Notes: generated by a model not told the origin, from the sequence alone. 64,000 nucleotides of DNA from Candidatus Latescibacterota bacterium (GCA_965197905.1 CBDAOB010000003.1:704001-768000); one strand, 5' to 3'. Counted from the stretch's first letter, positions 4,156 to 56,911 are shown. Numbers and translations are program-made.

Positions 4156-4260
4156 CTCTGAATTTATCGTGATGTATATACATTGTCAATACAAAATTCT
4201 GGGCCAAAGTTGTCGAATCCAGCGCCAGCCGATTTCCTGCAAGGCGTTAGACTGCCCACG

Positions 4261-7200: not shown

Positions 7201-10200
7201 GGCTTTCGCGGCTGCGATCTCGGCCGCAGCCGGATCGATGCTCCAGTCCACCAGCGAAGAGGCGGGCTCATCGGTGGTCCAGACGATGGTGGCACCGGTC
7301 TCGGTGATCCCCTGAAAGCTAGGACCAGCGGTGATGGCAGGTGGCGTGCGATCGCTCTCGTCCGCGGTGGTGAACCGTCGCGACCGACTGGAGGTTTGGT
7401 TTCCTGCGACGTCGGTAATCGTCGCTCCGTATTCGTAGGTGGTGCCCGGCTCGAGGCTAGAAAGCACCACTCGGTGAAAGGTGAGAAACTCCGGATCGGC
7501 CACGGCACGCTCGACAGTACCGGCCTCGTCGGCTCGATACCCCACTGAGATGTTCGTCGGCTCGTCCGTGGTCACTTCCACCACCACTTCCTCTGCCCCG
7601 GCGGAGACGACGATCGGCCCGGTGTTGATCCGCGGCGGGCGACGGTCGCCTGTTGCTCGCGTAGCCACAGCGAGATCGACGCAGGTAGGGCCGGTTGCCG
7701 CTGGCATCGGTGGCGCACACCGCCAGCTCGTAGGTCGTCTCCGCTTCCAGGCCGACTGCCCGCAGTTCGTGCGCGGTCTCCTGATTGCCCGAGGCCAGGT
7801 AGATCGCTCCATCGGCGGAGCGCACCGTCGCAATGGTCGGTTCGTTGGTGGTAAAGGCGATCAGGAAGCTGCTTACAGTAAGACCCCGCACGATCGGCCG
7901 GCCGATCATCACGGGTGGCGCAATGTCCGGACCGGCCGGGGTAAGGAAATCTAGCACCGACCACTCCACGCGATTGCCCGCTGGATCGGTACAGAACGAC
8001 TGGAAGAGGAAACGGGTGCCCGGAACCAGATTGGTCAGCGCGACCTCGTGATTCTTTACGTCCGCGGGCACGATCACCCGCTTGCCATCGTTGTCCGCCA
8101 GGATCTTCGCCGCCACGACCGGATCGAAACCGTTCGCAAGTGCCTTGGCGTTCGCTCCTCCCATCGGACTGAAGAGGATCTCGCTATCCGCCACCTCATC
8201 CGTATCCCATTCGATGCGCACGCGATCGTGTTTGCGGTCGACTACCACCGGCGGACCGAAGAACTTGGGCGGTTTGGTATCCGCTTCGGTCTCGGTGCGA
8301 AAACGGCCAGTCGCTGCTCCATCCACACCGAAACTGAGGGCGTAGGTGTAGTCGGTCCCAGGAAGGAGATTGCTCAGTACGACATTGTGCTCGGTAGCCA
8401 GCCCGCGGCTTTCAAACACCTCATTCTCAGGTTGCTCGTTGGGATAGTAGGTCACCACCGCTTCGGCGGCGCGATCCAACCGGAAGAAGATGGTGGCGCT
8501 GCGATCGCCGATCCGTCGCGCCACGGGCCCCGCGGTCAGCTGCACCGGCTGCAAGCTGCGACTAAGACTCTCGAAACGGATCACCGACGACATCGTCTGG
8601 TTGCCACCGGCATCCTCAGCCATGACTTGAAAGAAGTAAGGGGTGTTTGCGCGCAGACTGGTGAGCTCCAAGGCGTGCTGCTGCTGGCGTTCCAAACCGC
8701 GCGCCGAATGGGTGGGGGCCGAGAGGTCCTCCTCCGTGCTCGCCACAAGCTCGACGGAAGCAGGCTCGTCCAGCTCCATCAGCACGCGCGCAAAGGTGGA
8801 AGTGAGGTCCCCTGCAAACGGCGTTGTGACGAAAGACGGGGGGGTCTGATCCGCGTCGATGTCGGTTACGAACGACAACACCGGTCCTCTGGAGATGTTA
8901 CCGGACTGATCCCGCGCTTCCAGGCCCACCCAGTATGTGGTCCCCGGGTCCAGTCCGGCCAGCTCAACCCGGTGCGGCCGCTGGCGCTGGAGACTGGGAA
9001 TGGTGGTGGCGTCGTTCAGGTCAGCGTTGGCAGCAAAGCTCAGCTCGAGCTCGACCGGTTCGTTGTAGGTCACTTCGAGCACGGCGGAAACGGAGGAGAT
9101 GCCCAACACGTTGGGACCGGTCTCTATCAACGGCACATCTTCGTCCTCAGCTCTCAGGGTCCGCAAGGTAAATGACCGCTCCACCCCATTTCCCTGGGCA
9201 TCCAGGGCGAAAATATCGACGCTGTATGTCGTATTCGGTTGCAGTTGGGTCATCTGCGCCCGGTGTTGCCGCGCCGGCTTGGCGATCGTGATAAGCCCGC
9301 CCTCTGCTGACGCAGCTACCTTGGCCGGAGCGTCGACCTCAAAACGCAGCGACCCCGTCGTCGACTCGGTAGTGCGCCAAATAACCGTAGCCCGTTCGAA
9401 GCCAACCCCCTCCGCGAATAGCTCGACGATCTCGGGCGGAAGATCTTCCCCCTCGGACCGGGTATGAAAAGATCCGCGCACCTCGGGTGTCCGATTATCG
9501 GCCCCATCCCGAGTCAAAACCTCATAGAAGTACTCCGTGTCCGCTTCCAGATTGGTGAGCTGGAGCGTGTGGCTCATTTGCAGCTCGCCGCTTTCCTCGA
9601 GGATGGCGTCGTCGAGATCCGGATCGGTGCTAACAAGCAGTTGCACACGAACCGGCTCGTCGGTAGTGAGCACCACCACCGCGCTCCGGTCGGTCAACCC
9701 TTCGACGGCGGGACCGGAGAGCAGCTCCGCAGATATTTCGTCGGGAGCTGCCCGGGTTTCGAAATCGCGTACAGCGGAGCGGGTCTCGTTGCCGCTGGCG
9801 TCGCGCATGAGTACCTGGAAGTAATAGCGGGTGCCCGGGTCCAGCTCGATAAGCTGGATCTTGTGTTCGGACTGGACCTGCGCCGCCCCCACGAGACGGC
9901 CGTCGCTGACCTCGTCATCGGCGTCGAAGCGCACCTGCACCGTGACCAGTTCATCCGTTTCCAACGCGATAAGTGCCGAGACGTCGGAGATGGCGGTTGC
10001 GGCCGGGCCGGCAGTGAATTCGGGCGCCGTCTCATCCGCTTCGACTCCAGTCGTAAAACTGCCGCTGCGAATCATGGACAGATTACCCGCGGCATCCGCC
10101 GACTGCGCTTGGTACCCGTACTCCGCCCCTGCCTCCAGCCCACTAAGCTCCACGATGTGATCTTCGGTGAGCTCGTCGAGGACGATCTCGCTGACGCTTT

Positions 10201-13200
10201 CCTGGGTAGCCTTCGACGCCACCAGACGGGAAAAAGAGATGCGACTGTCGGCCGGCTCGTCGGTGCGCCAGCGGACGACGGCGCGTGCGGTAGTTGTGCT
10301 TTCTATATATGGATCCACCAGAAAAAGCGGCGCCACCTCATCCGGCGCCGACAAGGTCAACACGCGACCGGAATGGGACGCAGACTCGTTCCCCAACCCA
10401 TCGGTAGTGCGAATCTCGTAGCGAAAAAAGACGCCTGCCCGCAGGTCTTCGAACGTCAGCTGATGTGCTTGCCTCAGGTCAGCTCCAGATATCTCGACCG
10501 TGCTCGGATCCAGCTGGGCGGCGTTCGGGTTTACGGTCGCGGGTCCCCCATCCTCAGCCGTCAGCTGCACCAGGCTCGTCGCCGGCTCGTCCGTGTCCCA
10601 ATTGAAGACGATCGAGCTTTCGGTGGAAGCGGCGCGCACGTTGGAGATAAGCGGTGCCCGGAGATCGGCCTCGGTGGTGAAAGCGAAGCTCGCTTCCGAG
10701 GTGGCGCCGGATGGATCGTGGGCTCCCACCTTCCAGGTGTAGGGCGTGCCCGGGCCCAGCTCTGACGAACTGTAGGACGCGGCGTCTTGACGGCTGGCGA
10801 CCTGCACCAGCGAAGAACCGGTCGGACCCAGGAACAGATCGAACACCAGCGGATCGAAGTCGACGTCGCGGGCGGACCAGGAGATCAGTGGCGCCAGCGG
10901 GGTGTCCGCCGCTCCATCCGCCGGAAATCCGACGACCGGGGTCGACGGCGCATCGTTCACCCGCGTCCAGATCAGCGTCACCTCCTGGGTTGCCGTGGCA
11001 CCCGTCGCCGGATCGGTCACTAGGATGTCGGCCTGGGTCTCGCCGAACGCGTTTGCGACTGGAGCGAAGTCGACGCCGTTATTGCTTTGGGTAGCCGTTG
11101 CGACCAGCACGCCGTCGAATCCGGAAGCGGACCACAGCATGGTCGTGATGTCGGAATCGAGATCGGTGAGGTTGCCAGTCCCCCCTACGTGAATAGGGTT
11201 GTCTTCCGCCGCGGAATAGCGGAATCCCAGATCCACGATGGTGGGTGCATCGTCTACCGGCGCCCAGGTCAGGGTTACATCCTGAGCTGTGGTCAAACCG
11301 TGGACATTGGTGCGGGTGATCGTCACCAGGTCACTGCCGTTGGCGTGGGGCACCGGAGTGAAGTCGATCTTGTTGCCCTGAATCGAGGAGGCGGAAATGA
11401 GTGTTTGATCCGCGCCGGCCAGGGTCCAGGTACCACTCTCCGCATCGATGGCGTTCAGATCCAGCTCCAGTGTTTCGTCTTCGTTGGCGGTGGCGTCGGC
11501 GATCTTGGCAAGGTCGGGCGGTCCGTTGACGATGATGTCCAGTGAGCTCTGATGGGTGATGCCCACACCCCGAACCGTGAGGAAAACCGTATGAGTCCCC
11601 GGCGTCGAGTAGGTTACCGTAACCTCCTGGTTGCGATCTTCGTAGACCCGGTTATCGTCCGCCTTTGGCTCCAGAAACCAGGTTTCGACGGGTCCGGTAG
11701 ACTGATTGGAGAAGGTAACGGTAAGCGGCGGATTGCCTTGCAACGTCGATGCCGAGAACACCGCCCTGGGTGGCTCTGCAAGGAAAATCGTCAGCGTGCC
11801 GGTGGCGCTGCCCTGGTAGTTGGGATCGTTCACGGTGGCCGTGACCCCGTAGGCCCCCGGATCGATCGGCGGACTGGCCAGCGGTATACCGAATACGTTA
11901 TGGGTAAAGATCACATCCAGCCCCGGCGGGTCTGTCGTCGCACCGCCCACTTTCGGATTGCCGTCCGACTTGGCATCCAGATTGTTGAGGGTGACCGTGG
12001 CATCCGCCTTGGCCACGTCGAAGCTGGTACTGGTGCCGGTCAATCCCAGGCCGGTGGCGCTCAGAATGCGACCATCTCCCGCTCCGGATACGGTCAGACT
12101 GTCGATGACAACGCGGCCGTCGGCAGCGGTAAAGTCGCTTTGCGACAGCGTTCCGGCTGGTGACAGCGCCAGGCTCACCGTGCCATTGAAATCCTTGTCG
12201 CGATTACCGTGTTGGTCACGGGCTTCAAGGAAGGGTTGCGGCGAAAAAAGCTCCAGGTGGGTCGTGTTCGTTGGCTGTGACGTGAACTCCCAATGTGTGG
12301 CCACTACCTCGAAGGTCACCTTATTCGACTCGCTGACCGCTATTGCGGCCCCCTCATTGCCGGCGCTGGTGGTCACCCCGTTGAGGTCGAACCCCATCTT
12401 GAAGGCGTGGCCCTCTTCGCCTATAACGGTGTTCATGCGGGCGGTGATGATGTAGAAGGTGTGGCCGGTGGGTGTTTCCGTTGACGTGGGCGACACCGTC
12501 GTGGTACCACCGATGTTGATGGTGCTTTGCAGACCTATCTGGGTGTCTCCGCTGTCGAAGGTTTCATCGCTGCTGCGGTAGAGCACCAGATCCAGGTCGT
12601 TGGAAATCAGACCGGTGGGCGCGTCCAGGTCCGAGATGGTCAGGTCGATGCCGGTGACGGTGAAGGTTCCGAAGCTGGTGAGTCCGATGCTGAAAAGCTG
12701 GATTTCCGAACCAGCGCCTACGATCGCCGCGCCGACGTGGCCGGTGGTTTTCAGCGTAGATTGGTTGCGAAGGACGGAGATGGTGTTGTCAGTTAAATTC
12801 GCCACCGCCAGATCCGGCCGTCCGTCGCCATCCAAGTCCGCGATAATAGGACGAAGAGCACCGGCTGCCGCTGTGAAATCCACCTTCGCAGCTACTGTTG
12901 AAGCGTCGATCACACCGGGGGTCCCCGGTGTTCCGGAACACGGAGACCGTCGTACCCGCGCCCGAACCGAAATTCGCTACAGCCAGATCCAGCTTGCCAT
13001 CCCCGTTCAGATCTCCGACCGACAGCCGCCGCGGATCTGCATTCGTCGCAACATCCACCGTCGGAGCGAACGACGCGCCGTTAATGACCCCGAGGTGCTG
13101 GTGTTTCGAATCATGGAAAACGTGTTGTCCGAACTGTTGGCGACGGTAAGATCGGATTTCTCGTCTCCATCCATGTCGGCAATTATCACACCATTGGCGA

Positions 13201-16200
13201 AATCTCCGGCACCGAAGTCAACGTTGCCCGCAAATGAAGTACCGTCTACGATGCCGAAGGTAGCTGTGTTTCGCAGTACAGATACCGCATCTCCAGTTGC
13301 AGTGCCTACGGCCAGATCTGGTTTGCCGTCGCCATCGAGATCGGCGATGGACAGTCGTTGTGGGCCCAGGTCAGTGGCAAAATCAACTTTGGCCGCGAAC
13401 GAATTGGACGTGATGGCACCACTAACGCTCGTGTTACGAATCACCGAGACGGTATTGGCACCACCGTTGGCTGTTACAAAATCGAGCTTTCCGTCCCCGT
13501 CCAGATCGGCAATTTCGACTCCATGAGCACTCGTTCCCACCGTAAAGTCCACCTTCGTAGCGAAGGAGACGGCGCCGCTGGAACTGGTATTTCTGAACAC
13601 GGAGACCACGTTGGTCGGATTATCGTGCGCAGCAGCAATGTCGATGCTTCCGTCCCCGTCCAGATCACCCACAGAAATGCCGTCTGGCTTTACGGCAGAT
13701 GTCAGGTCGATCTTGGTAGCAAAGGATGAAGCGTCTATCAAGCCCGTTGAGGAGGTGTTTCGAAGAACGGAAACTGTGTTCGAGGTTCGGTTGGGCGCCG
13801 CCAAATCCGGTTTGCCGTCCCCGTCGAAATCGGCAATTGTCAGCGAAGATGGATCTGTGCCGGTTACGAAGTCGACCTTGGCTGCGAACGTCGACGCATC
13901 GATCGTGGCAGCGGCACTGGAGAAGGTCGGCACAAAGAATCCCTTCGACTCGGTGACCCGATTGCTCCTGTTCACCGTGATGGGACTGAAGGTGGCGCCC
14001 ACCGGCACGTCCACCGTAAGTGAAGTACTGGTAGCTGTAGATGCGTTCGCTTTTGTGGCGCCGAAGTAGACAGAGTTATTGCCGGCAATGGCGTCGAAGT
14101 TCGTTCCGGTAATGGAGATGGTCTTTCCGACACGTCCAGAAAGAGGACTGAAAGTGGCGATCGTGGGTAACGGTATAGTGGTCGTGAGGTTGCGATACAC
14201 CGATACCGTGTTCGCGTTGAAGTTCGTCGCTGTCACGTCCGGTTTGCCATCCCCGTCCAAATCCGCTATGGCGATTCCCGATGGGCCAGTTCCCGTCGAA
14301 AAATCAGCTTTGGGCGAAAATGAAGAAGCATCAATCGTACCAGATGTACTGGTGTTCCGGAAAACCGAAATTGTGTTGACGTTGAAATTCGGCGTTGCCA
14401 GATCCAGCTTGCCGTCCCCATCGATGTCGCCCGTCGCAACGACCTGGGGACCCGTTCCCGTGGCAAAGTTCACCCTGGCGGCGAACGATCCGGCGGTGAT
14501 CGTTCCCGGTGTGCTTGTGTTTCGAAACACCGAGATGTTGATGGAAGCAAGATTCTGGATGGCCATGTCGTTCTTTGAGTCGCCATCAAAGTCAGCAATC
14601 ACTACTTCGTTTGGACTTGTACCCGTGAGGAAATCGACCTTCGCAGCAAATGAGGAGGCATCGATCGTTCCGGGCGTCGAGGTGTTGCGAAGGACGGAGA
14701 TCTGAGAACCCGCCCGAGCCACGACTGCTAGATCGGGCACGCCGTCACCGTCAAGATCGCCGATCGCGGCATGATTTGCACCGTTGGCCGTTGTGAAATC
14801 GACTTTCGCAGCGAACGAGGAAGCATCGATAGTGCCGGCGGTCGTAGTATTTCGCAATACAGCGACCGCGTTATCAGTGTCCTTCGCAACGGCAAGATCA
14901 AGCTTTCCATCTCCATCCAAGTCACCAATAGCGGTGCCGGTCGGCGAGGAACCGGCTGTGAAATCCACCTCTGCAGCAAAGGACACAGTTCCGAGCGTAC
15001 TCAAGTTACGGAGTACGGAAACCTGAGTTCCCGCTCCGGAGCTCCAGTCCGAAACGGCCATATCCAGTTCCCCATCTCCGTCAACGTCACCGAAGGTCAC
15101 GTCTACCGGATCAGTGGTCTCCGCGTAATCCACTTTTGTCGCAAACGAAACAGTACCCGCACTACCCGAGTTGAGAAATACGGACACATTGTCGGAGTTC
15201 ACGTTGGCAACCGCCATATCAAGCTTTCCATCGCCGTCCACATCTCCAATAGCCATGAGACTTGGGAATGTCCCCGTCGAAAAATCGACTTTGTCGGCCA
15301 ACGATGACGCGTCAATCGTCGGGAATTCACCATCAAAGGTGGTCATGAAGAAGTCGTCTGATTGAGCCGTCCGGTTGTTGACCGTCACGCTCACCCGATC
15401 AAACGTCGCCCCGGCAGGCACACTGACCGTCAGCGAGGTCGTCGAGGCCGACGTCACCGTCGCCTGAGCACCCCCAATCCACACCACGTTACTCGCCGGC
15501 GTCGTATCGAAATTGGTCCCCGTGATCGTCACCGCATCACCCACCTTGCCCGACAATGGACTGATCGACGACACCGTCGGAGCCGGCGTGGTCAACGTCA
15601 GGTTGCGATACACCGAAACGTCGCTGTCACCCCAGTTTACGACCGCAATATCCGACTTCCCATCACCGTCATAATCATTGATGGCCAAAGCCAAGGCATC
15701 ATCACCGGCCGTGAAGTCCGCCTTCGTGTTAAAAGAAATCGCACCGACCGTGCTCTTGTTCTTGAGCACCGAAATGTTGTCGCTTATGCCGTTACCGGCG
15801 ACCACGTCGAGCTTGCCATCGCCGTCGACATCCCCAAGGGCAACGTCACGCGGCGAAGACCCACGGTAAGGTCTACCTTGGCAGCAAAGGAAGGCGACCC
15901 CACCGCGCTTGTACTACGAAGCACCGAAACCGTGTTGTCCGGTCCGTTTGAGGCAGCCATGTCGAGCTTGCCGTCGCCATCGATGTCTCCTAATCTGACC
16001 CGCCCCGAATTGGTGCCCGTTGTGAAGTCGACCTTTGCGGCAAACGTCGACGCGTCGATGGTCCCGGGCAGACCGGTGTATCTAAAGACTGAAATCGTGG
16101 CAACGTTGTTGTTTGCCACCGCCATGTCAGGCTCGCCGTCGCCATCAATATCGCCCAGAGCGACGTCCGTCGGCACCAGACCCGTAGTAAAATCAACTTT

Positions 16201-22252: not shown

Positions 22253-23776
22253 ATGCGCGTACTGAACACGAGCACCATCGATAACGTCGATGAAGCGGTG
22301 CTCTTTCCCTTTGACGAATGCAGCGTGCCGTTCACCCGCGACCTGCTTCTAAACCTGCAGTCCGGCCGCACCAACAAAGCCGAGATGGACTACGGGCACA
22401 ACATCGATATGGACGATCGTCACCCGGAAGGCCCGGTGGTCACCTACGGCCCTCCCGGGTCTCCCGATTCCACCGAGGTCCTGAGCCCCAACGTGTTCTA
22501 CGTCGATGGCGAGTACCGCATGTACTACCTGGGTGCCGATGACAATCGCAAGCGGCGCACCGGGCTCTACGCCACCTCCAAAGACGGTTTCAACTGGGAG
22601 AAACCTAACCTGGGGTTGAGGGAGATGAATGGGAACACCAACAACAACCTGGTGGAAGAGGCGTGCGGCGAGTGGGTATTCCACGAACCGGAAGACGAAG
22701 AATACCCGTTTAAATCGGTCAGCAGCAACGGCGAGAACACCTCCGTCAGTAAAGATGGCCTGCACTGGACCTCAACCGGCGAGAACCGGCGGGTGTTCGG
22801 CGGGATCCATATGGAGATCGCCTCGATCTACAAGTGGGATGGCTGTTATTACATCAACGGCCAGAACGGTCCCTCGGCCTGGACCCGATCGCTGCCCCAC
22901 CCGATCTCCCTCGCTTCCAAACGTACGGTCATAACCTTTGCTTCCTACGACCTGAAGAACTGGACCCACGCTCCGGCGAACAGCTTTCGCCGCGACCCGA
23001 TACCCCCGGAGGCACCGGAAAATTTCGAATGCCATGCCGGCGAACAGATCCACGAAGGCATGGTGCCGTGGAATCGCGGCAATGTGCTGCTCAGTCTCTA
23101 CGGCCAGTACCACGGCCCCAGCAACGATCGCCGCGACGTGGCGGTGGACCTCGGTTTCGCCATCAGCCACGACGCTCTGCATTTCAAGGAACCGATCCCC
23201 GACTTCCAGATGGTGCACTCCTACGAGATCAGAGGACCCGAGGGCAAAGGGTTCGCGGCACCCCGACTGATGCACAATTCCTGGGCTACCATCGGCGACC
23301 GCACGGTGATCTGGTTCAGCGTCTGGCGCGAGGAGTCCTCCGTCTGGCACGACGGGTTATGGTCTCTGGACAACCCGCGCTCGCTGGCGCAGGTATGGGT
23401 GGCCACCTGGGAACGGGATCGACTCGGTTTCTTCAAACCGTGCGAGCGCGACATCAGCTGGGGGGCCGGCGATTACGAACCGCACTTCGTCACCTGCCCG
23501 GTGGAGCTCGACGGCGAGGGCGAGGTATTCGTCAATGCAGACCGGCTCAACGAACACAGTCAGCTCCGCGTCGAGCTGCTGGATCGGGAGTTTCGCCCGA
23601 TCCCCGGCTATTCGGGAGATGACTGCATTCTGCTGGGGAAACCGGGATTGCGCCTGCCGGTGCGCTGGCGCGACAAAGACAAGCTCGAGAGGTTCGGCCA
23701 CCCCGTCCGTGTTCGCGTCAACTGGGAGGGGTTGCGCCCGGAGGATGCCCGTCTCTTCGCCGTCTACGTCAATTAA
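22253..23776 (+). CDS. Putative five-bladed beta-propeller glycoside hydrolase-like protein (paralogue 1)
   Basis: 'GEYRMYY...YATSKDGFNWEKPNLG...SKDGLHW...SHDALHF'; C-terminal 'LRVELLD...PIPGYS..DC'. Confidence 0.65.
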   Translation: MRVLNTSTIDNVDEAVLFPFDECSVPFTRDLLLNLQSGRTNKAEMDYGHNIDMDDRHPEGPVVTYGPPGSPDSTEVLSPNVFYVDGEYRMYYLGADDNRKRRTGLYATSKDGFNWEKPNLGLREMNGNTNNNLVEEACGEWVFHEPEDEEYPFKSVSSNGENTSVSKDGLHWTSTGENRRVFGGIHMEIASIYKWDGCYYINGQNGPSAWTRSLPHPISLASKRTVITFASYDLKNWTHAPANSFRRDPIPPEAPENFECHAGEQIHEGMVPWNRGNVLLSLYGQYHGPSNDRRDVAVDLGFAISHDALHFKEPIPDFQMVHSYEIRGPEGKGFAAPRLMHNSWATIGDRTVIWFSVWREESSVWHDGLWSLDNPRSLAQVWVATWERDRLGFFKPCERDISWGAGDYEPHFVTCPVELDGEGEVFVNADRLNEHSQLRVELLDREFRPIPGYSGDDCILLGKPGLRLPVRWRDKDKLERFGHPVRVRVNWEGLRPEDARLFAVYVN

Positions 23777-23791
23777 AGGAATTACGCTACG

Positions 23792-25324
23792 ATGAACGTC
23801 CTAAACGGAATCACACCACGGTCCATCGACGAGGCGGTACTCTTTCCGTTCGATGCCAGGAGCATGCCTTTCCAGCGCGACCTTATCCTCAACCTGCAGT
23901 CTGGCCGCACCAACAAGGCGGAGATGGATTACGGCCACAACATCGACATGGACGATCGCCACCCGGAGGGCCCTGTACTCACCTATGGCCCGCCCGGCTC
24001 GCTCGACTCCACCGAGATCATTTGTCCCCAAGTGTTTTTCGTCGACGGGGAGTACCGCATGTGGTACACCGGCGCCGGCGACGACCGCAAACGGCACGAA
24101 GGCCTCTACGCCACCTCCAAGGATGGGTTCAACTGGGAGCGACCAATCCTGGGTTTGACCGAGGTAAACGGCAGCAAGGAGAACAACAAGGTCGCCGGCC
24201 CCTGTGGCGAATGGATGATCTACGACCCCGAGGATCCCGATCCCCAGCGCCGTTTCAAATCCTTGTTCTATTCCGGTGCGGGTGCCATGCGAGCCAGTAC
24301 CTCATTCAGCGCCGACGGATTACACTGGGTACGCGCCACCGAGAACGGCGACATCTTCGGCACCGGTATCGAGGCCGGCAACATCTGCAAATGGGGCGAC
24401 TGTTATTACATCAATGGGCAAGGCGGTCCGTCGCCGATGAACCGTCCCATCCCCCACCCGATCAAGAATGCCAACAAACGGATCGTGGTCACTTACGCCT
24501 CCTACGATTTCATCCACTGGACCCATGCCGCCGCCATGAGTCTGCGGCGGGATCCGATCCCGCCGCGGGCACCGGAGTCGTTCGATGGCCACTCGGGAGA
24601 ACAGATCCACGAAGGTGTCGCCACGTGGAGCCGCGGGAACCTTTTGGTGGGGCTCTACGGCCAGTACCGCAGTGCCAGCAACGACCGCCGCGACGTGGTC
24701 CTCGACCTGGGCTTCGCCATCAGTCACGACGCGTTGCATTTCACCGAGCCAATCCCAGGTTTCAAGATGGTCCATTCCTACGAGATCCGCGGCCCCCACT
24801 ACGACTGCTTCGTTGCTCCGCGCCTGATTCAACGCAATGCCTGGGCGAACATTGGCGACCGCACCGTCTACTGGTACAGCATCTGGCGTGAAGAGGCCTC
24901 CACTTGGAGCGCTGTGAACCCGAGATCGATGACGGGGGTCTGGGTGGCGACCTGGGAGAGGGATCGCTTTGGCTGGATCGCGCCCTGCCCGCCCAACTAC
25001 GGCTCCCAGGCCGGCGAGCACGATCCCCACTGCATCTCCTGCCCCGTCGAGTTGGAAAGTGAAGGCAAGAAACTCTACGTGAATGCGGATCGGTTGGGAG
25101 AGCACGCCGAATTACAGGTGTCGCTTCTCGACAAGCAGTTCCGCCCTGTGCCCGGCTATTCAGGGGACGACTGTATTCCGGTGAGCGAATCGGGCCTCAG
25201 GCAACAGGTGAAATGGCGCGGCAAGGAAACACTGGAGAAGTTCGACCAGCCGATTCGGGTGCAGGTCAAGTGGGGCGGCGTGAGACTCGAAGATCCGCGG
25301 TTGTTTGCGGTCTATGTGAGTTAA
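23792..25324 (+). CDS. Putative five-bladed beta-propeller glycoside hydrolase-like protein (paralogue 2)
   Basis: Collinear with the preceding gene, with long identical peptide stretches. Confidence 0.65.
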   Translation: MNVLNGITPRSIDEAVLFPFDARSMPFQRDLILNLQSGRTNKAEMDYGHNIDMDDRHPEGPVLTYGPPGSLDSTEIICPQVFFVDGEYRMWYTGAGDDRKRHEGLYATSKDGFNWERPILGLTEVNGSKENNKVAGPCGEWMIYDPEDPDPQRRFKSLFYSGAGAMRASTSFSADGLHWVRATENGDIFGTGIEAGNICKWGDCYYINGQGGPSPMNRPIPHPIKNANKRIVVTYASYDFIHWTHAAAMSLRRDPIPPRAPESFDGHSGEQIHEGVATWSRGNLLVGLYGQYRSASNDRRDVVLDLGFAISHDALHFTEPIPGFKMVHSYEIRGPHYDCFVAPRLIQRNAWANIGDRTVYWYSIWREEASTWSAVNPRSMTGVWVATWERDRFGWIAPCPPNYGSQAGEHDPHCISCPVELESEGKKLYVNADRLGEHAELQVSLLDKQFRPVPGYSGDDCIPVSESGLRQQVKWRGKETLEKFDQPIRVQVKWGGVRLEDPRLFAVYVS

Positions 25325-30492: not shown

Positions 30493-30969
30493 CTACAGAC
30501 CGAGAAGCATAAAGCCGACGACGGCGTGGAATACGTCGATGCCCGCCGCGTGGCGCAGCAGTTCGTGCAGTATCAGCGGGGCTGCAAGAATTACCGGGAC
30601 TTTGAGCAGCGGCGCAAGCCGAAAGCGAATCCTGACCGAATGATAGAGGGCCCACGCGAACAGGATGGACGACCCACCGATTATCAAGGCTGGAATTAAG
30701 AAGGCAACCCAGGATGTGCCGCTGCCGTCAGCGAGAAAACTGCCGTATCCGCCGTGCAGCAATGGCACTGCGTTCACCCAGAAGAGGCGGTGAATGGCAA
30801 TGACCCCGTAGACCAGAAACGTCGTGCCGAGCGCTGTTTCGGTCAGCACCACCGGGTCGATGGGTCGACGGGTGATGACACCGAACCAGACGGCAGATGT
30901 GGTATAAAGCGACGTCGCGAACAGGGAATAAAACAGAGCTCGTGGGTGATCTGGTGCAGTAAATAACAT
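30493..30969 (-). CDS. Hypothetical membrane protein (~4 TM)
   Basis: AGGAG RBS before ATG 30969; hydrophobic segments; 7 nt downstream of the XRE gene. Confidence 0.6.
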   Translation of the reverse strand: MLFTAPDHPRALFYSLFATSLYTTSAVWFGVITRRPIDPVVLTETALGTTFLVYGVIAIHRLFWVNAVPLLHGGYGSFLADGSGTSWVAFLIPALIIGGSSILFAWALYHSVRIRFRLAPLLKVPVILAAPLILHELLRHAAGIDVFHAVVGFMLLGL

Positions 30970-30976
30970 TGTGCTC

Positions 30977-31540
30977 CTACGCGACTCGTCCCATCGAATT
31001 GTTCTTGCCTTCCCCGACCGGGATCTCGCTGACCAACTGGATGAGCCCCTCGTCGCGGTGCTCCTGATCGGCGGTTCCGATCTCCTCTTCGCGGGCACCA
31101 TGTCGGCCGACGAAATCCTTCATCTCCTTCATCAGCCGCGCGTGCAGCGACGCCAGCAGGCCACCGTTCTCGACATCCCGAGAGATGTGTTCGTCGAAAA
31201 AGCGTTCCGCCGCCTGGCGCACGGAGGGTTCCGTATAGATCTCTTCTCGATTGTCCTGAACCGGAGCCAGCGTGAGCGAAACCAGCTCAGCGATAAAACG
31301 CTCGCGGAAAGAATCCGGATCACGACGAGCGGCTACGTTGCGGTACTCGATCAACTCGTCGACGCTGTCGCAATCCAAAGCTTCGTACAGCTTGTCGAGG
31401 GTTTTGAGGTCGATGCGTTCGATATCCCCGTTGACGAGACGGTTGATCTGCTGCCGCGGTACGCCGATGCTGCGGGCAAGCTCGGCTTGACTTGGCGCGC
31501 CCGGCCGTTCCAAAAGCTGCTTCAACCTGAACTTCATCAT
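30977..31540 (-). CDS. XRE/Cro-C1 helix-turn-helix regulator with C-terminal extension
   Basis: 'RLKQLL...SQAELARSIGVPRQQINRL.NG..ERIDLKTLDKL..AL.C..V.ELIEY'. Confidence 0.88.
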   Translation of the reverse strand: MMKFRLKQLLERPGAPSQAELARSIGVPRQQINRLVNGDIERIDLKTLDKLYEALDCDSVDELIEYRNVAARRDPDSFRERFIAELVSLTLAPVQDNREEIYTEPSVRQAAERFFDEHISRDVENGGLLASLHARLMKEMKDFVGRHGAREEEIGTADQEHRDEGLIQLVSEIPVGEGKNNSMGRVA

Positions 31541-31567: not shown

Positions 31568-31654
31568 AGTATAGACGAAATTGGGACGACCGTCAACAAA
31601 ATGATTGACTCAAGAAACAAAAGTATTGACATATATCAACAGTAACGCTACCTT
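31568..31654. promoter_or_regulatory. Back-to-back sigma70-type promoters with repeated candidate operators
   Basis: Minus strand TTGACG-N17-TATACT (31596-31568); plus strand TTGACA-N17-TACCTT (31626-31654); AACAAAA-NN-ATTGAC occurs twice and overlaps the -35 boxes. Confidence 0.6.
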
Positions 31655-31728: not shown

Positions 31729-32019
31729 ATGATTCGCACCGAAGTTCGCATGGGAATCCAGACAGCGTCGGAAGGCGAGCTTGAGATCGAGGAAGTAAGT
31801 CGCACGGTCGGCGAGCACATTGCGTCGCTGAGCAAGGAAACCGTAGGCCCCGCGGCGGACAGGTTGCGCGCCGCCATGCAGAACCCGCAGTCGACCATCG
31901 AGCTGCGTTCGGGCGATAAGGTCCAGGTGGTCACGCCCGATACCCCTCTCCGGGAACTGCTGCCCCCGGACGGAAGCAAGCTCGAGATCACGGTAAGCGA
32001 ACCCCATGTCGGCGGCTGA
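31729..32019 (+). CDS. Putative ubiquitin-like small protein ending in Gly-Gly
   Basis: 96 aa; AGGAGG RBS; C-terminus 'LEITVSEPHVGG*'; first gene of an operon with an E1-like gene. Confidence 0.7.
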   Translation: MIRTEVRMGIQTASEGELEIEEVSRTVGEHIASLSKETVGPAADRLRAAMQNPQSTIELRSGDKVQVVTPDTPLRELLPPDGSKLEITVSEPHVGG

Positions 32020-32021
32020 TC

Positions 32022-33357
32022 GTGCCTTACGGTGCCACGGTCAGACGGCTGCACCGCGAGCGACAGGATCGCCTGACTGCCCGGCGCATGCAGCATCGCT
32101 TGGAGAGAAGGGCTCGTGCAGCTCCCAACCTTGCGCGGCGCCCTTTCGCGCTGCCCCGCGACACACGGCCCGAAACGCTGGTGGCGCTAGCTCCGGTAAG
32201 GAGGGTCGAAGCTCGAATCGCCCCGGAGAGCGACAGTCGGTGCCCGCTCCACGTGGTCGAACTGCTTTCGACCTGGAGCGGCGGCGAGACGGCGGTGGTC
32301 GCCGGCAAGGTTTTTGAGCTGCGGCGCCAACCCAAAACCTCAGGTTCGGTGCGAGGATATTCAGCCCGGCCCCTGGCGGACATCGCTGATCGACTGCAGC
32401 ACCTGGCCGATCGGGGAGCTGCGCGTTTGGAAGCCTGGGCGACGGGTCACGGAGGTGGTGATCCGGAGCTGGATCGCTACCTCCCACCTCCAGCCCCCGC
32501 TACGGCTGAAGCAATATCCGACTTCATAGCTAGCAAACTCGTGCCCCGGTTATCCGCCGTGAACGGTTCTGTGGAAGTGGTGGAAGAGCAGGAAGCCACC
32601 CACCCCACAGCCAAGGTGGGCGAGCGTTTCGCGAATGAACTCAGGTCCGACTTTGCACTGGTTGGCGACGCGCTGTACAAACTGGCACGTTTCTATGGAA
32701 AACCGGACGACCAGGAACTATATCTGGAGACACCCATGGGTCCATTCGTTGGTATGCGGGCCGAACCTCGGCAAGCGGCGTTGCATCGCTGCCAAACGCA
32801 GTTGGTCGAGGTCCTCCGCAGCGCCTTCAGCTCCAGGTCTCATACTAAGGAGCTCTACAGGTCGGGAGACCACTATGTGCTCAACACGCCGCGAGGCAGG
32901 TTCTACTATTGCCGCCATTGCCCGCCCTACGTTGTGGAAGCATCCGATGGACGACTCTATTATTTCGATGCAGTGCAGATCGGTATGCAGCTGACCCATC
33001 TCTGCTCGCGCGTTCTTATTTCGCGATCACGTTGTGCAAGCCCTGCACCCGTACGCCCATGTGTTCGTCCAGAATGCCTTCGGGGGCCGCATCGTCTGCA
33101 TGCCGCGGACACAGGAGTACTACGACCGTCTGCGTGACCTGCCACCCGAGGATGCACTGACAGAACACCTGGAGAATGCTCGCCTGACCTTGTGCGCCGG
33201 CTACTTACCCCACACCGCACCCTTTCATCCGATCGAAGAGGTGGGGCGCAAAACCATATCGGAAAATCGCGCACAGTCGCGCAACCTGCCGATCTACCGC
33301 TACGCTTCCAGAGCCGGATCTCATCGCTTCTCACACATCTTCGAGATGGATGAATAG
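32022..33357 (+). CDS. Hypothetical protein with a putative E2 (UBC-fold)-like C-terminal domain; one frameshift near 33020
   Basis: ORFs 32022-33137 and 33034-33357 join by removing one T; 'YAHVFVQNAFGGRIVC' resembles the E2 H-P-x-V...G-x-I-C signature. Confidence 0.5.
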
Positions 33358-34634
33358 GTACTCGCGGCAGGAAGCCATTGGGGGTTGGGATCAATCCAGG
33401 TTGGCAGACGCCTGTGTCGTCGTTGCGGGATCGGGCGCCGCCGCTTTGCTGACGGCCCTCGCTGCCGTAGCCATGGGATTCGGCTCTATCGAGCTTCTTA
33501 AGCTGCGAGGACGCACCAGAGAAAACGGTATGTTCAGCCGCCTGGTATCTGGCACTGGAAGGGCGTGGGTAGATTTCCTACGCCAGGTGAATCCGACTAT
33601 TCGCATTGCAGAGGTATCAACTGGCAACGCATCCTCCCTGCGACGAACCTTCAGTCGTGCAAGCTGCGTTGCGCTTGTCGGCAGCACCGCCATCGAAAAC
33701 CGTTTTCACAGCCTGCTCGAACGATGCCCGGGTGTCCCGATCATCCGCGGGTGGACCGGCTCCTCCGGCATGTGTTGGGGCCCGGTCACCGCTTCCGCCG
33801 TAGAGGCGAGCGATCGGGGAGATGGGGTTTCTGATCTTTTGCTGGCAGGTTTTGTGGTGGAGGAGCTGCGTCAGACGATTTTGCCGCTGCCAGGCGATCC
33901 CGATGATCTTGACTTGGTGAAGCGGAGCACCCTGGCACGGGCTCCCTTCGTGCGGTCGCCTCCGCCGTGTGGCCGGCTTTCGATGGTGGGGGCGGGCGCG
34001 CTTGGAACCTGGGTCAGCCTTGGGCTGGGCTTGGCTAATGCCGCCGTCGAGCTCCACATATTCGATGCGGACCATGTGGAGGAGAACAACCTCAATCGAC
34101 AGGTGCTCTACTTTGGCGCTGTGGGGAAACCGAAATCACTTACCCTGGCAAGGCGAATCGCCAGGTTGTTTCCTTCCGTAAAGGCCAGCGGCTACGCCCT
34201 CTTTCTCGAAGAGAGTACGATGAACTGGCTGCCGCCATCTGGTCAGCTGGTTGCCTGCCCGGATAACTACGCAGTCCGTGACGTCCTCAATGACTGCGCG
34301 GTAGCAGCAGGCCACAGCCTCGTATCCGGGATCCTGCACCACCTATCTACCGGGCGGATCTCCATGTCTGGATTGTCAAATCGGCATCAAGCAACTCGCG
34401 CACCGAGAAGCGGCTGGCAACAGCTGCATGAGGCTCGACCCATCCGTAGTGACCAGCAACGTCATAGTGGGCGGCCTCATGGCTTGGCAGATTGTCGAAC
34501 TGATGAACGGGAAACTACAACCTGGAGTCTGGGAATACGACGGGCGTGCATCCGGATCGAGGTTTGGGGTACACTCGCAGCGGCCGGCGTGCGAGTGCCA
34601 CGTGCGATCTCCTGGTACCGCCGTCTGCAAATGA
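33350..34634 (+). CDS. E1-like ThiF/MoeB protein with two tandem ThiF domains; frameshift or short deletion near 34330
   Basis: N-domain 'RYSRQ..IGGWDQSRL...VVVAGSG' is degenerate. C-domain has 'VGAGALG...D.DHVEENNLNRQ...VGKPK...CPDN', and the shifted frame continues 'PGGSPCLDC...NSC...PSVV...GGLMA...CECH'. Confidence 0.8.
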
Positions 34635-35710: not shown

Positions 35711-37315
35711 CTATTGGCAGTTCGCCGCCAATCTTTCCTGACGCATCCAGCGCTCCAGTATGTTGCGCGAGCGCATGAGCAGGCGGTAGTACCGATTCTC
35801 CACGGCCGCTTTGCCCCGCGAGCGTCTGCCGTTCGGCACCAGGTTGAAACGGCCGCGAACCTGGGTAATGATACGCGCTCGCGGATCCACAGCGATGGTT
35901 AGAATTCGTTCCAGTGGCTTGCCGTCTTCTCGGGCGCTCAACGACCAGATGGATGTGCTCCGCATGCGGCAGCTCTTGGCGTAGGACATGATGCAATGGT
36001 GCATATGTTGGCCCTCCGCCACCAGCTCGCGATTGCTAAGTAGCTCGCTAACCGTCCACCTGCAGCTTCGGCCGCCGCTGCTCCTGTCGATCTCTTCGAG
36101 AGAGAATTCACCCACCTCTGAATGCTCCCACACCATGAGGCGATGCCACTTCTTCTTGCTGCGTTTGAGGTCGAGCGGCGGTTCCTCGGGGTGCACCTGA
36201 TTGGCGAGCTCTTCGTGCCAATCATCCATCTGCCGCAGAAGCTTGCTAACGCTGCGCCCGCCCATGGAAAAGTTGGGTTGAGGCGGTTCTTCCGTTTCGA
36301 TATGCCCACCCGGACGCACGACTTGGCGCGATGCGAACTTCTGGTTGTGGATGTAATCGACCATGGGACCAACCTGGGCGGGATCCAACATCGGATTGCG
36401 GGCGAAGAAGATGATGACCGTCGCCCAGAACTCCTCGTTGTCGAAACAGGAGCCGAGACGAGAACCGATGACGGCCCCGGCCTGGTGTTCATTACCTCCT
36501 TGTCCCACCAACTGTCCCCATCGTAAGGCTTGGGCGACAGTGACATCACAAGGCGCCCGTAGGAATTCATGGGCCATCTTCTTGGTCAATCGCACCGGAG
36601 TGTCGGCCGTGCGAATATTGCCGCCGCGACCAACGTGGAGGAACCAATCCTGTTCCCGTTGAGTTGCCGTAGTGGCGCCCTGCAGCCAGGCGGCGTCCAT
36701 GAAGGCGGGGACGTCGTACTCCGCCGCCAGGTGTTGAACGAGACTTCTGAACTGACGTCGAGGATTGTGGATGTCGGGATTCCATCTCTCAACCGGCCGA
36801 ATCCAATCGGCGTGACGGCGAGCAAGCGCGGTCATACCCTCGATGTAGGTATTGCCCTCGATCTCACCCAGCTGTTCCAATGCCGGTCGCAGATCGAAGA
36901 GATCGCCTACTCGTTCAACCCTGGCAAATAGCCGGAACAGCGCGTGGCGCTCGGGACCATGGCCGATATGGTTGAACTGGCTGCGGATGCGGTAGAGGTA
37001 TGGGAGCCCCAGGCGACCCTTGTGGCCGGAGTGTTCATAGAGCTCTTTGATGGCATTTCCCGGTCGCCTGCTGTTGCGCCGCTTCGCGGCGAGAATCGTG
37101 TCCCCGGCTATGCGGTTCGCGAGCCGTCGTTCGTTCTCAATCTGACGATCGCTCTTGGCGATGCCGTTTCCAAGTCCCCGACGCTGGCACCAGGCCCGGT
37201 ACTCCTTTTCGGATTGGAGACCGAGCTTCTTGTAATGGCGTCTGATGTGCGCGCGGTTGTTGGCGCGTTCAATCTCCTGACTGTTCGATCTTCGCCGTCG
37301 CCGCTTGTGTGCCAT
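35711..37315 (-). CDS. PcfJ domain-containing protein (paralogue 1)
   Basis: C-terminal 'ELVAEGQHMHHCIMSY...SIWSL...LTIAV...QVRGRFN'. Confidence 0.8.
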   Translation of the reverse strand: MAHKRRRRRSNSQEIERANNRAHIRRHYKKLGLQSEKEYRAWCQRRGLGNGIAKSDRQIENERRLANRIAGDTILAAKRRNSRRPGNAIKELYEHSGHKGRLGLPYLYRIRSQFNHIGHGPERHALFRLFARVERVGDLFDLRPALEQLGEIEGNTYIEGMTALARRHADWIRPVERWNPDIHNPRRQFRSLVQHLAAEYDVPAFMDAAWLQGATTATQREQDWFLHVGRGGNIRTADTPVRLTKKMAHEFLRAPCDVTVAQALRWGQLVGQGGNEHQAGAVIGSRLGSCFDNEEFWATVIIFFARNPMLDPAQVGPMVDYIHNQKFASRQVVRPGGHIETEEPPQPNFSMGGRSVSKLLRQMDDWHEELANQVHPEEPPLDLKRSKKKWHRLMVWEHSEVGEFSLEEIDRSSGGRSCRWTVSELLSNRELVAEGQHMHHCIMSYAKSCRMRSTSIWSLSAREDGKPLERILTIAVDPRARIITQVRGRFNLVPNGRRSRGKAAVENRYYRLLMRSRNILERWMRQERLAANCQ

Positions 37316-55008: not shown

Positions 55009-56754
55009 CTAAAGGAAAGAACTGCGCACCAGTCCCTCCTGCTCTTCCCATTGATGCAGGATGGAGCGGGACCGACGCAAATAGTGACGATAGCGGTCGT
55101 CGAGCAAGTTTTTCGACCTGTTTCCCAAGCGACCTCCAATCAGCGCATTGTATTTTCCCCGGGCTTGGGTAACGCGCCGGCCCTTTGGGTTGACGGCGAT
55201 CGTCATCAAGCGCTGTGAGTTGCCACTCCCGTCGGAGATCTGTAGGGAAAACACCGCCTTGGAGCCGCGCCGGCAGGTGTGCACGTAGGTCCGCACACAG
55301 TGATGCATCGCTTTGCCTTCTGCTACCAGCTCGTGGGTAGTGGTCACCTCCGAGATGGACCATGTGAGCATCTTGTCGGTCTCTTCGTCGTGCTCTGTGA
55401 CGGAAAGCTCACCCACGCCACAGGGTTGCCATTGATTCGAGGGGACCCGTTGATCTCGCACCAACCTCGCATGCCATTGTTCAACGTAGCGCAACAGCTT
55501 GTCCACGCTGCGACTCTTCATCGAGAGATTCGCTTGGAGAGGATCTTGTAACTCTATGCGCCCACCCGGCAAAACCACCTCCTGTCGTTCGAATTTCTGA
55601 TCCTGTATGTAGTCGACGATCGGTCCGATCCATTCGGGATCTAGCATGGGGTGTAACGTCAGCCAATGAATGAAAGTGGACCAGAAGGCCTCGTTCTCGA
55701 GTGATTCTCCAAGGCGGGTGGCGACCACTGCTTCGACCAATTCCTCGGATCCGTCCTGGCCAACGATCTGACCATAGCGCAACGCTTCGAACAGGGAGTA
55801 GCGATCCGGGGCAAGCAGAAACTCATGAGCCATTCGTTTTGTGAGGTTCACCGCGAGATCGGGGGCCGTCCGAATGTTGGCCCCCATACCCACGTGTATG
55901 AACCATCTCTGCTGCCGGTCCGTCTCCAGGGCATCCTCGGTCGGATCATGAAAGAAGGCGGTGTCGAAAAAGGCGGGCACGTGATACCTGGCCAGCAGAT
56001 GGCGGGCCAACGATCCGAACTGAAGGCGGGGATTGTGTCTCTCCGGTCGCCAATGGTCGGGACCGCGCAGCCAGTCCGCCTGCCGTCTGGCAAGAGCGGC
56101 CAGGCCGTCGATCCAGGTATTGCCCGTCCGGGCGCCAAAGCGGGTGATGGCTGGCGTTGAAACATCGAACAGATCCGCCCGCGACCGATCGACATCGAGC
56201 AGTAGGTCGCGAAACGCCTGGCGAACCGGCTGTTGATCGGACAACTGCCCGGCAATCTCCGCGATGCGGGCCATGTACTCGGGTCGCAGATCGTCCGTGG
56301 CAACCGAACCTTCGAAAATCCCGGTGATCGTATCCCGGGGTCGTCGGGTAATCCGGCGCACCTTGCGCAGAACCGCCTGGCTGGTCAGGACGCGTACCAT
56401 GTCCAGCTCTTTGCGTCGTGGACGGTCCCCTTTGTGCAGCGCGTCACTCAAATTCTGCTCCCGACACCAAGCCTGATAGGCCTGCGTCGAACCCAATCCC
56501 AAAGCTTTTACGTGGGCAAGAACCGCTTTGTCCGCCGCCGCCGCTTTAGCATCGCGTTTAACTGCGGCGCGCTCAACCCGGCGATCTTGCCAGCTCTTGT
56601 TGAGGGCAGCCGTAAAACCGTGCTCACGACACCAGTATTGATATTGGGCGACCGTCTGTAGTCCCAGAGACTCGATGTGATCGGTCAGATGAGCATTGGC
56701 CCGTGCCTGAGCACCCCGGCGACGACGTTTCCTTTTTTCGTTGGTCTTTGGCAT
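55009..56754 (-). CDS. PcfJ domain-containing protein (paralogue 2)
   Basis: Collinear with 35711-37315; 'ELVAEGKAMHHCVRTY...QARGKYN'; start placed at MPKTNEK. Confidence 0.8.
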   Translation of the reverse strand: MPKTNEKRKRRRRGAQARANAHLTDHIESLGLQTVAQYQYWCREHGFTAALNKSWQDRRVERAAVKRDAKAAAADKAVLAHVKALGLGSTQAYQAWCREQNLSDALHKGDRPRRKELDMVRVLTSQAVLRKVRRITRRPRDTITGIFEGSVATDDLRPEYMARIAEIAGQLSDQQPVRQAFRDLLLDVDRSRADLFDVSTPAITRFGARTGNTWIDGLAALARRQADWLRGPDHWRPERHNPRLQFGSLARHLLARYHVPAFFDTAFFHDPTEDALETDRQQRWFIHVGMGANIRTAPDLAVNLTKRMAHEFLLAPDRYSLFEALRYGQIVGQDGSEELVEAVVATRLGESLENEAFWSTFIHWLTLHPMLDPEWIGPIVDYIQDQKFERQEVVLPGGRIELQDPLQANLSMKSRSVDKLLRYVEQWHARLVRDQRVPSNQWQPCGVGELSVTEHDEETDKMLTWSISEVTTTHELVAEGKAMHHCVRTYVHTCRRGSKAVFSLQISDGSGNSQRLMTIAVNPKGRRVTQARGKYNALIGGRLGNRSKNLLDDRYRHYLRRSRSILHQWEEQEGLVRSSFL

Positions 56755-56911
56755 CGAAATCGTTGATGGCGGTGTCCAGTCAATCTGCCTCTTCCGCGTG
56801 GTCAATGTCAAGCAGTAGCCTGACCCTCGAAGTTGACCCGGCCTTCCTTTTCGGTTTGATTGAAAACACATCTTCGGCTGTCGGCATTCCTTTTTGCAAA
56901 CTTGGGAAACA

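Follow-up and report, generated by a model that had tools for sequence, protein, structure and literature searches.

The question raised by a three-gene cluster in a Candidatus Latescibacterota bacterium is whether it encodes a bacterial form of ubiquitination and whether this copy could still work. The cluster spans positions 31729 to 34634 of a 64,000-nucleotide stretch (GCA_965197905.1 CBDAOB010000003.1:704001-768000), here called the window, to which coordinates given without a locus name refer. An earlier note, made from the sequence alone, had proposed an operon for a ubiquitin-like protein (Ubl), a putative conjugating enzyme (E2) and a two-domain activating enzyme (E1). Our analysis points to an uncatalogued operon, of which this copy was recently inactivated and whose products likely attach a ready-made Ubl to proteins through thioesters on predicted E1 and E2 cysteines, with no linked deubiquitinase, a reading to which we give a probability of roughly 70%.

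Organization of the operon and its lesions

Three tightly coupled frames were found, as previously described. The intact Ubl gene (31729..32019, + strand) is preceded by an AGGAGG site and encodes 96 amino acids (aa) ending directly in Gly-Gly (VGG-stop). Gene 2, the large E2-like gene (32022..33357, +), starts two bases past the Ubl end, and its stop overlaps the start of the E1-like ThiF gene (33350..34634, +), both pieces of which match Pfam ThiF. Gene 2 and the E1 gene are pseudogenes in the window. Comparison with L001, a syntenic Ca. Latescibacterota metagenome-assembled genome that is 83% identical across the operon, identified one extra base near 33019 in gene 2, the frameshift already reported, as well as a loss of 20 bases following 34328 in the E1 gene, which had been overlooked. 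The predicted E2 active-site segment, H-x-F-V...G-x-I-C (33058..33099, +), in which HVFV occupies 33058-33069 and the GRIVC Cys 33097-33099, lies downstream of the frameshift and out of frame, and gene 2 encodes a 371-aa product without the E2 site. The E1 deletion lies upstream of CxxC (34365-34376), NSC (34419-34427), which holds the predicted catalytic Cys of a short crossover loop (34425..34427, +), and CxC (34590-34598), and the encoded 441-aa product lacks all three. The degenerate N-terminal E1 half described earlier was found, but the C-terminal adenylation domain is not intact as had been stated, these motifs being shifted out of frame. Each lesion precedes the predicted catalytic Cys of its gene (33097 and 34425), so the encoded products lack these residues, and a version of either enzyme that keeps this Cys is highly unlikely to be made in this genome.

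That the two frameshifts are sequencing or assembly errors in an operon functional in the organism appears very unlikely. The genome was assembled into five contigs, one lesion amounts to a single base within a short run of T, and the sequencing run X1, whose Logan contig covers 30900-34800 with 0 differences and 0 gaps, is probably no independent sample, all of which would fit such errors. However, that contig agrees exactly with the window, a 20-bp deletion is not of the homopolymer-error type, and P0001, a protein on another contig, is broken at the same place. Frame-breaking indels between the window and L001 were also in excess in the operon, with five across 2.9 kb compared with one within seven flanking genes and one at a start codon. 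The extra gene 2 base is absent from contigs of X3 and X4, and the 20 bp are present in X3.

Close relatives are broken at other sites, and distant loci are intact. L001 carries its own lesions (−1 in the Ubl gene, +13/−10 in gene 2). On one close-relative contig, the Ubl is cut and gene 2 is broken as in the window but E1 is intact; on another, the Ubl and a 444-aa gene 2 product are intact but E1 is cut at 326 aa (database proteins were assigned to shared contigs by inference). Foreign sequence interrupts gene 2 on two close-relative contigs, and one has a +13 shift. Seven of the eight close-relative contigs with gene 2, counting the window, carry a lesion, and the eighth stops at residue 387. 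The ratio of nonsynonymous to synonymous substitution (dN/dS) against L001 was 0.06 for the Ubl, 0.07 for the E2 core and 0.08 for the active adenylation domain, compared with 0.30 to 0.35 for the accessory parts. From these sequence comparisons, purifying selection acted on the operon until recently, and it is decaying now.

In other strains (X3 and X4), foreign sequence, probably insertion elements, is joined at window positions 33348 and 34302, the latter coinciding with the end of the truncated E1 P0269. One X4 contig omits 31561-33959.

A predicted beta-grasp Ubl with a direct Gly-Gly terminus

A GG C-terminus was present in 95 of 99 Ubl homologues, 88 of which ended in PH(V/A)GG; of the other four, two are cut short and two have altered ends. 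The AlphaFold model (pLDDT 90.9) is a predicted beta-grasp, the fold on which the original proposal depended. Its best structural match was 8tyz_B (Z 8.1; rmsd 2.6; 80 residues aligned), the Ubl chain of a bacterial E1-E2-Ubl complex, and eukaryotic and archaeal Ubls followed within one Z unit. The Ubl sequence had no match in Pfam, NCBIfam or PADLOC, and Foldseek against the PDB returned none for the model at an E value of ≤0.001.

Gene 2 as a large predicted E2 with accessory modules

The E2 assignment had been regarded as the weakest link of the proposal, open to refutation if the GRIVC Cys proved unconserved or outside a UBC fold. Intact relatives of gene 2 are 430 to 445 aa long, with an N-terminal extension, UBC helix 1, an insertion of ∼110 aa and a UBC core; one of these, P0268 (444 aa), is 94% identical to window gene 2 over residues 1 to 334. 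A model of the intact 443-aa homologue from L012, built with 56 sequences, reached a pLDDT of 84 and a pTM of 0.61. In a wide structural search, 49 of the 50 best rows, classed by their titles, were E2, UEV or RWD proteins of the UBC superfamily, matching at residues ∼162 to 418. A second structural look gave chains of E2 type in all 50 rows. The list of the wide search was headed by Pex4 and included BubB, Cap2 and BilB chains; the Z scores are middling yet the list is uniform, and the E2 call holds at the level of predicted structure. The ESM Atlas's own model of gene 2 returned UQ_con clusters with TM scores of 0.44 to 0.47.

Although these matches span residues ∼162 to 418, only ∼130 residues align. 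In the model, a helix at 166-192 takes the position of UBC helix 1 and the sheet starts at ∼301, with ∼110 residues inserted between them, and a ∼160-residue extension precedes the fold. The large N-terminal domain previously suggested is thus only part of the addition, the remainder lying inside the predicted UBC fold after helix 1. The N-terminal part and the insertion each form a predicted four-strand-plus-helix module, and the two are weakly alike (HHalign probability, 51%; E value, 1.5e−4; 57 columns). Foldseek rows for Pur-alpha and polo-box proteins, perhaps corresponding to these modules, were dismissed at probabilities of ≤0.12, and Foldseek against viral models gave nothing useful.

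His354, Phe356 and Cys364 were each retained in 54 of 56 aligned gene 2 homologues. The exceptions were P0144, which is apparently frameshifted there, and P0151, and the three residues were invariant in 55 sequences after P0105, P0144 and P0151 were dropped and two intact homologues added. The His precedes the Cys by 10 to 14 residues, in the same order as in the HPN...C motif of canonical E2s, where the spacing is 10.

A minimal two-domain E1

The two halves of the E1 are homologous (HHalign probability, 97.8%; E value, 7.7e−13), indicating an internal duplication. The N-terminal half has RYxRQ and a degenerate Gly loop but no NLNRQ, while the C-terminal half retains GAGALG (GxGxxG), Asp, NLNRQ and Lys in 68 to 71 of 71 homologues. 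The profile's best PDB sequence match was human UBA7, with its inactive adenylation domain (IAD; E value, 3e−4) and then its active adenylation domain (AAD; E value, 1e−22) matched in order, followed by MoeB. Together with the homology of the halves, this bears out the inactive-plus-active layout proposed earlier. MoeB was also matched twice, and the double match to UBA7 may reflect an independent duplication rather than closer kinship with eukaryotes.

The crossover Cys (Cys374) was found in 70 of 71 homologues and CxxC in 65 of 71, the latter being absent from six distant sequences, and the terminal CxC occurred in 59 to 60 of the 60 sequences long enough to hold it. From CxxC to Cys, the loop measures 17 to 20 residues in all 64 sequences holding both, and the ∼80-residue helical CYS domain of BilD is therefore absent. 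Intact E1 relatives were those of L001, P0194 and P0270. Among distant two-domain E1-like proteins (P0226-P0238; 413 to 521 aa), mostly without a taxon, P0230-P0233, P0235 and P0236 retain the crossover Cys but have lost CxxC.

Gene neighborhood and the search for a deubiquitinase

Pfam scans of the flanking open reading frames (ORFs; 63 + 30) revealed no linked JAB peptidase gene, nor did six-frame searching, with the genome's own JAB as the query, across the window and 17 related loci, several of the contigs ending close to the operon. This agrees with the earlier claim of no adjacent deubiquitinase. Gene 2 and the E1 gene abut at all loci covering both. An unlinked Prok-JAB gene was detected in five of five operon-carrying genomes tested, and 8 of 14 control genomes also score; in this genome it lies on another contig, beside a cysteine-synthase-type gene.

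A different chemistry would be sulfur carriage, or small-molecule or peptide modification of the ThiS-ThiF or MoaD-MoeB type, with gene 2 as the acceptor enzyme and no conjugation to protein lysine. The GG terminus of the Ubl, the ThiF and MoeB models that the E1 matches best, its MoeB-like short crossover loop and thiC ∼2 kb from the operon at one locus (L013 only) fit this explanation. We nevertheless regard it as improbable. The best E1 score, 95 bits, compares with a ThiF/MoeB-type family cutoff of 275, and conservation around the scanned loci does not extend to any rhodanese, desulfurase or cofactor gene. Nor was any thiamine or molybdopterin gene present among the Pfam-scanned flanking ORFs of the window, as the earlier note had said. 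Gene 2, moreover, is predicted to contain a UBC fold, its His and Cys are near-invariant, and the genome has a separate ThiF/MoeB-type gene (C5:1936363) and, on contig C4, a separate small GG-ended protein that is ThiS/MoaD-like by eye.

Distribution

The operon was identified in 9 of 168 genomes of the Latescibacterota phylum, in some only as remnants, with gene 2 in six, the Ubl in seven and a family-level E1 in eight plus one remnant. Clear lesions were present in six genomes (G000, G098, G100, G105, G042 and G162). In G162, the Ubl, gene 2 and most of E1 are gone; in G042, an AT-rich insert of ∼220 bp (L013:8810-9027) splits gene 2, and an IS3-type transposase gene abuts the Ubl start. The covered parts of G163 and G093 are free of lesions, and only the C-terminal E1 half is present in G096. 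In 10 metagenome loci the covered parts are unbroken, with complete intact sets in L016 (5894-8812) and L020, although L018 is the G163 contig again and L015/L016 and L019/L020 are near-duplicates. The order Ubl, gene 2, E1 was constant at every locus covering at least two of these genes, so the operon is conserved as a unit across the genomes and metagenome loci examined.

Protein searches returned 99 Ubl, 55 gene 2 and 80 E1 matches. The few named ones belong to Latescibacterota and Gemmatimonadota, with Chloroflexota for a distant gene 2 clade; gene context was seen within Latescibacterota. The gene set is uncatalogued, its E2 and Ubl families being invisible to Pfam, NCBIfam and PADLOC, and a literature search largely outside subscription journals found no paper describing the family by title or abstract.

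In the ESM Atlas, the Ubl (score, 0.82) and gene 2 (TM, 0.62) both have look-alikes in unnamed clusters that include Thermodesulfobacteriota, and by features the E2 core is similar to phage clusters (0.90). These are leads to a possible wider family. The phage link suggested by the feature matches was set aside, with no relatives in viral contigs, searched with narrow patterns, or in GenBank phages, and none were found in plasmids searched with the Chloroflexota homologue.

Regulatory genes and flanking regions

The module extends left beyond 31729 to take in two further genes. Divergent from the operon is a gene for a 187-aa Cro/C1-type helix-turn-helix (HTH) regulator (30977..31540, −; Pfam HTH_26; E value, 1.6e−12), the C-terminal part of which belongs to no known family. 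Its dN/dS was 0.085, and the protein is 60 to 64% identical at L010-L012. Located 3′ of it is a gene for a conserved, hydrophobic and probably membrane protein of ∼157 aa (30493..30969, −), also of no known family; its homologues begin MSFxxPNH, and a longer 202-aa ORF overlaps the HTH gene. This pair stands beside the operon in the window, L001, L010, L011, L012, L016 and L017, and survives beside the G162 deletion. The membrane gene occurs in 6 of 168 genomes, always at the operon locus (dN/dS, 0.12 against L001).

A predicted promoter (31626..31654, +; TTGACA, 17 nt, TACCTT) is overlapped by a palindrome, TTGAC-N5-TCAAC. RTTGAC was found ∼75 to 112 bases upstream of the Ubl in all seven distinct HTH-linked loci and in none of four loci without the HTH gene, mostly inside a GTTGAC-N3-GTCAA palindrome across the −35 box. 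As the palindrome has 16 occurrences in the genome, its match in the window alone not being significant, and the operon promoter predicted here is absent from the promoter scan's list, only conservation of the palindrome counts. The palindrome is a putative operator for the HTH protein, which is likely a repressor.

In G093 (L034:190-7300, contig C244), genes for an ECF sigma factor, an FHA-GAF-sigma-54 activator, a Ser/Thr kinase with TPRs and a PP2C phosphatase directly precede the operon and replace the HTH and membrane pair. At L020, a gene for an unknown 537-aa protein (4260-5870, −) lies divergent from the operon at the usual HTH place, and downstream (9269-14453, −) are a caspase-domain/FGE-sulfatase fusion and a protein of at least 1177 aa without a Pfam match. 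Elsewhere in the window are two PcfJ-like genes (35711-37315 and 55012-57021, both −), the first of which is frameshifted in L001; tandem paralogues of ∼510 aa with near-identical starts (22253-23776 and 23792-25324, +), the first without a Pfam match at an E value of 1e−5; a lone FliG-like gene (56894-57937, +); and an ORF that runs past the window end and joins RNA-polymerase alpha-like and beta-like Pfam domains in a single frame (61313-64000, +).

Comparison with known systems

The closest comparison was made with type II BilABCD (CEHH/6C; Ensifer aridi TW10; PDB 8TYZ). Shared features are the order Ubl-E2-E1; a single Ubl of (predicted) beta-grasp fold with a reactive C-terminal Gly; a single-chain IAD-AAD E1 with an N-terminal Arg, a catalytic Cys and four Zn-type Cys; a standalone Cys-type E2, for which the UBC fold is predicted and the Cys register deduced; and no ligase (E3). 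In contrast to BilABCD, no JAB gene separates E2 and E1, the Ubl ends directly in GG, the E1 has a short crossover loop in place of the CYS domain, the E2 is ∼440 aa long with a split UBC fold, and an HTH and membrane regulator replaces CapH/CapP. In the BilB motif (CEHH in type II), the Cys is followed 13 residues later by a His, whereas the conserved His here comes before the Cys, and no His column conserved at ≥90% follows the gene 2 Cys. Chains of 8TYZ were absent from the best 60 of 76 sequence matches of the E1 profile. PADLOC, a check proposed at the outset, gave nothing for the Ubl or gene 2 and a weak, partial BilD match (E value, 8.8e−6) for two of three intact E1s, ranking below CBASS E1-E2 models whose matches cover the adenylation domain only. 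The system is Bil-like in its working but falls outside Bil on the JAB gene, the CYS domain and the BilB motif.

A Ubl that needs no maturation had been part of the variant proposed, and the Ubl here does end directly in GG. Two studies, however, report that the C-terminus of type I BilA is already a free Gly and that there are subtypes which have a single Ubl domain or lack a JAB gene (10.1101/2023.09.04.556158; 10.1101/2022.05.11.491447). The present system shares a free-Gly Ubl, E1 and E2 with these type I BilABCD/ISG15-like systems and JAB-less single-Ubl subtypes. Free terminal Gly and a missing deubiquitinase being already reported for Bil-type systems, the operon is less novel than the earlier note implied. 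The family may overlap with the JAB-less Bil subtypes (10.1101/2022.05.11.491447).

Bub operons (6E/DUF6527) likewise pair a Ubl with a diverged UBC fold (BubB chain; Z 6.3). Bub is described as forming Tyr and Ser oxyesters, with a DUF6527 protease and gene fusions, and type II Bub as typically lacking JAB (PMC11601596); the present family conserves both cysteines (E1, 70 of 71; E2, 54 of 56), and its genes are separate, with no DUF6527 gene linked. PRTRC/6d and type II CBASS Cap2 share a ThiF-like E1 with an E2-like partner, but as far as Table 1 of PMC1779556 indicates, 6d has a JAB, an alpha-helical protein and an E2 without the upstream His, and the PRTRC ThiF model TIGR03736 scored 27 bits against a cutoff of 145. 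Classes 6a to 6e all have a JAB gene or domain, some 6e versions excepted, according to the accessible sections of the same paper, and those of PMC11354881 add nothing further on the family. In Cap2, E1 and E2 are fused and the neighboring gene is for a cGAS-like nucleotidyltransferase, whereas here the genes are separate and have no such neighbor. The canonical eukaryotic E1s (UBA7 and UBA1) differ by their FCCH, SCCH and UFD domains, which are absent here.

Proposed mechanism and role

The single-chain E1 of intact relatives would adopt a pseudo-dimer of inactive and active adenylation domains, its one active site being completed by the arginine of the N-terminal RYxRQ. It would adenylate the C-terminal Gly of the Ubl and load the Ubl onto the crossover-loop Cys, from which it would pass to the Cys of the large E2 and end on a protein lysine. 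Such an E1-to-E2 thioester relay ending on lysine is reported in the accessible text for type II Bil (10.1101/2023.09.26.559546). With no E3 encoded, the two extra beta-rich E2 modules are natural candidates for choosing the target. By binding the palindrome across the −35 box, the divergent HTH protein likely keeps the operon repressed; an inducing signal would be relayed by the membrane protein.

Several results weigh against this reading. The X1 contig, at a depth of 4.8 and possibly from the source sample, excludes assembly error better than read-level error. The best match of the gene 2 model to the E2 fold (Z 7.5; rmsd 4.5; 138 residues aligned) is under the tool's safe level, Foldseek against the PDB returned none for it at an E value of ≤0.001, and neither Pfam, PHROGs and PDB profile searches nor NCBIfam and PADLOC gave sequence-level E2 support. 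The gene 2 Cys is assigned to the E2 active site from motif order, as the structural output gives ranges only. The best curated sequence families for the E1, ThiF and MoeB, are all far under cutoff. Lastly, scanned neighbors are varied metabolic and signaling genes rather than defense islands.

The same chemistry could instead serve a reversible regulatory tag on the cell's own proteins, removed in trans by the unlinked JAB peptidase, which we consider a lesser though appreciable possibility. The JAB gene in all five operon-carrying genomes tested, the kinase and phosphatase genes before the G093 operon and the missing defense-island context suit it, and the Bil deubiquitinase is described as essential even for a Gly-ended Ubl in the accessible part of 10.1101/2023.09.04.556158. 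However, the frequency of JAB in control genomes means that its presence says little, its position beside a cysteine-synthase-type gene matches the sulfur-carrier context of row 4c in the available portion of PMC1779556, and patchiness (9 of 168) with repeated loss fits an accessory system.

For the conjugation pathway proposed here, an inducible stress or anti-phage role is our single best guess, at a little under even odds. Patchy presence, shifting neighbors, tight repression and repeated loss suit a costly inducible function, and a defense role, as suggested at the outset, is favored only by analogy; since no scanned locus lies within a defense island, we do not rate it higher.

Implications

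More tentatively, and with the odds against it, the operon may stand for a separate class of bacterial ubiquitination whose E2 does its own targeting through two related beta-rich modules, one of them within the UBC fold. A minimal IAD-AAD E1 without a CYS domain would charge a ready-made tag that the operon cannot remove, and the membrane sensor and HTH repressor would hold one-way tagging off until envelope stress or infection. If so, the cost of one-way tagging would explain the many independent breakages in one lineage, and the E1 would stand, in structure, between dimers of the MoeB/UBA5 type and the canonical E1s of eukaryotes.

The bacterial systems known so far have no E3, and target recognition is attributed to the E2. 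With this operon, the few bacterial ubiquitination pathways gain an uncatalogued E2 and Ubl family, and an E2 with built-in accessory modules makes target recognition by the E2 directly testable by deletion. The intact, compact sets of L016 and L020 are suited to expression. The value of the window copy lies solely in documenting repeated loss. Of the E1s compared, this one has the simplest inactive-plus-active layout, which bears on the origin of canonical E1s.

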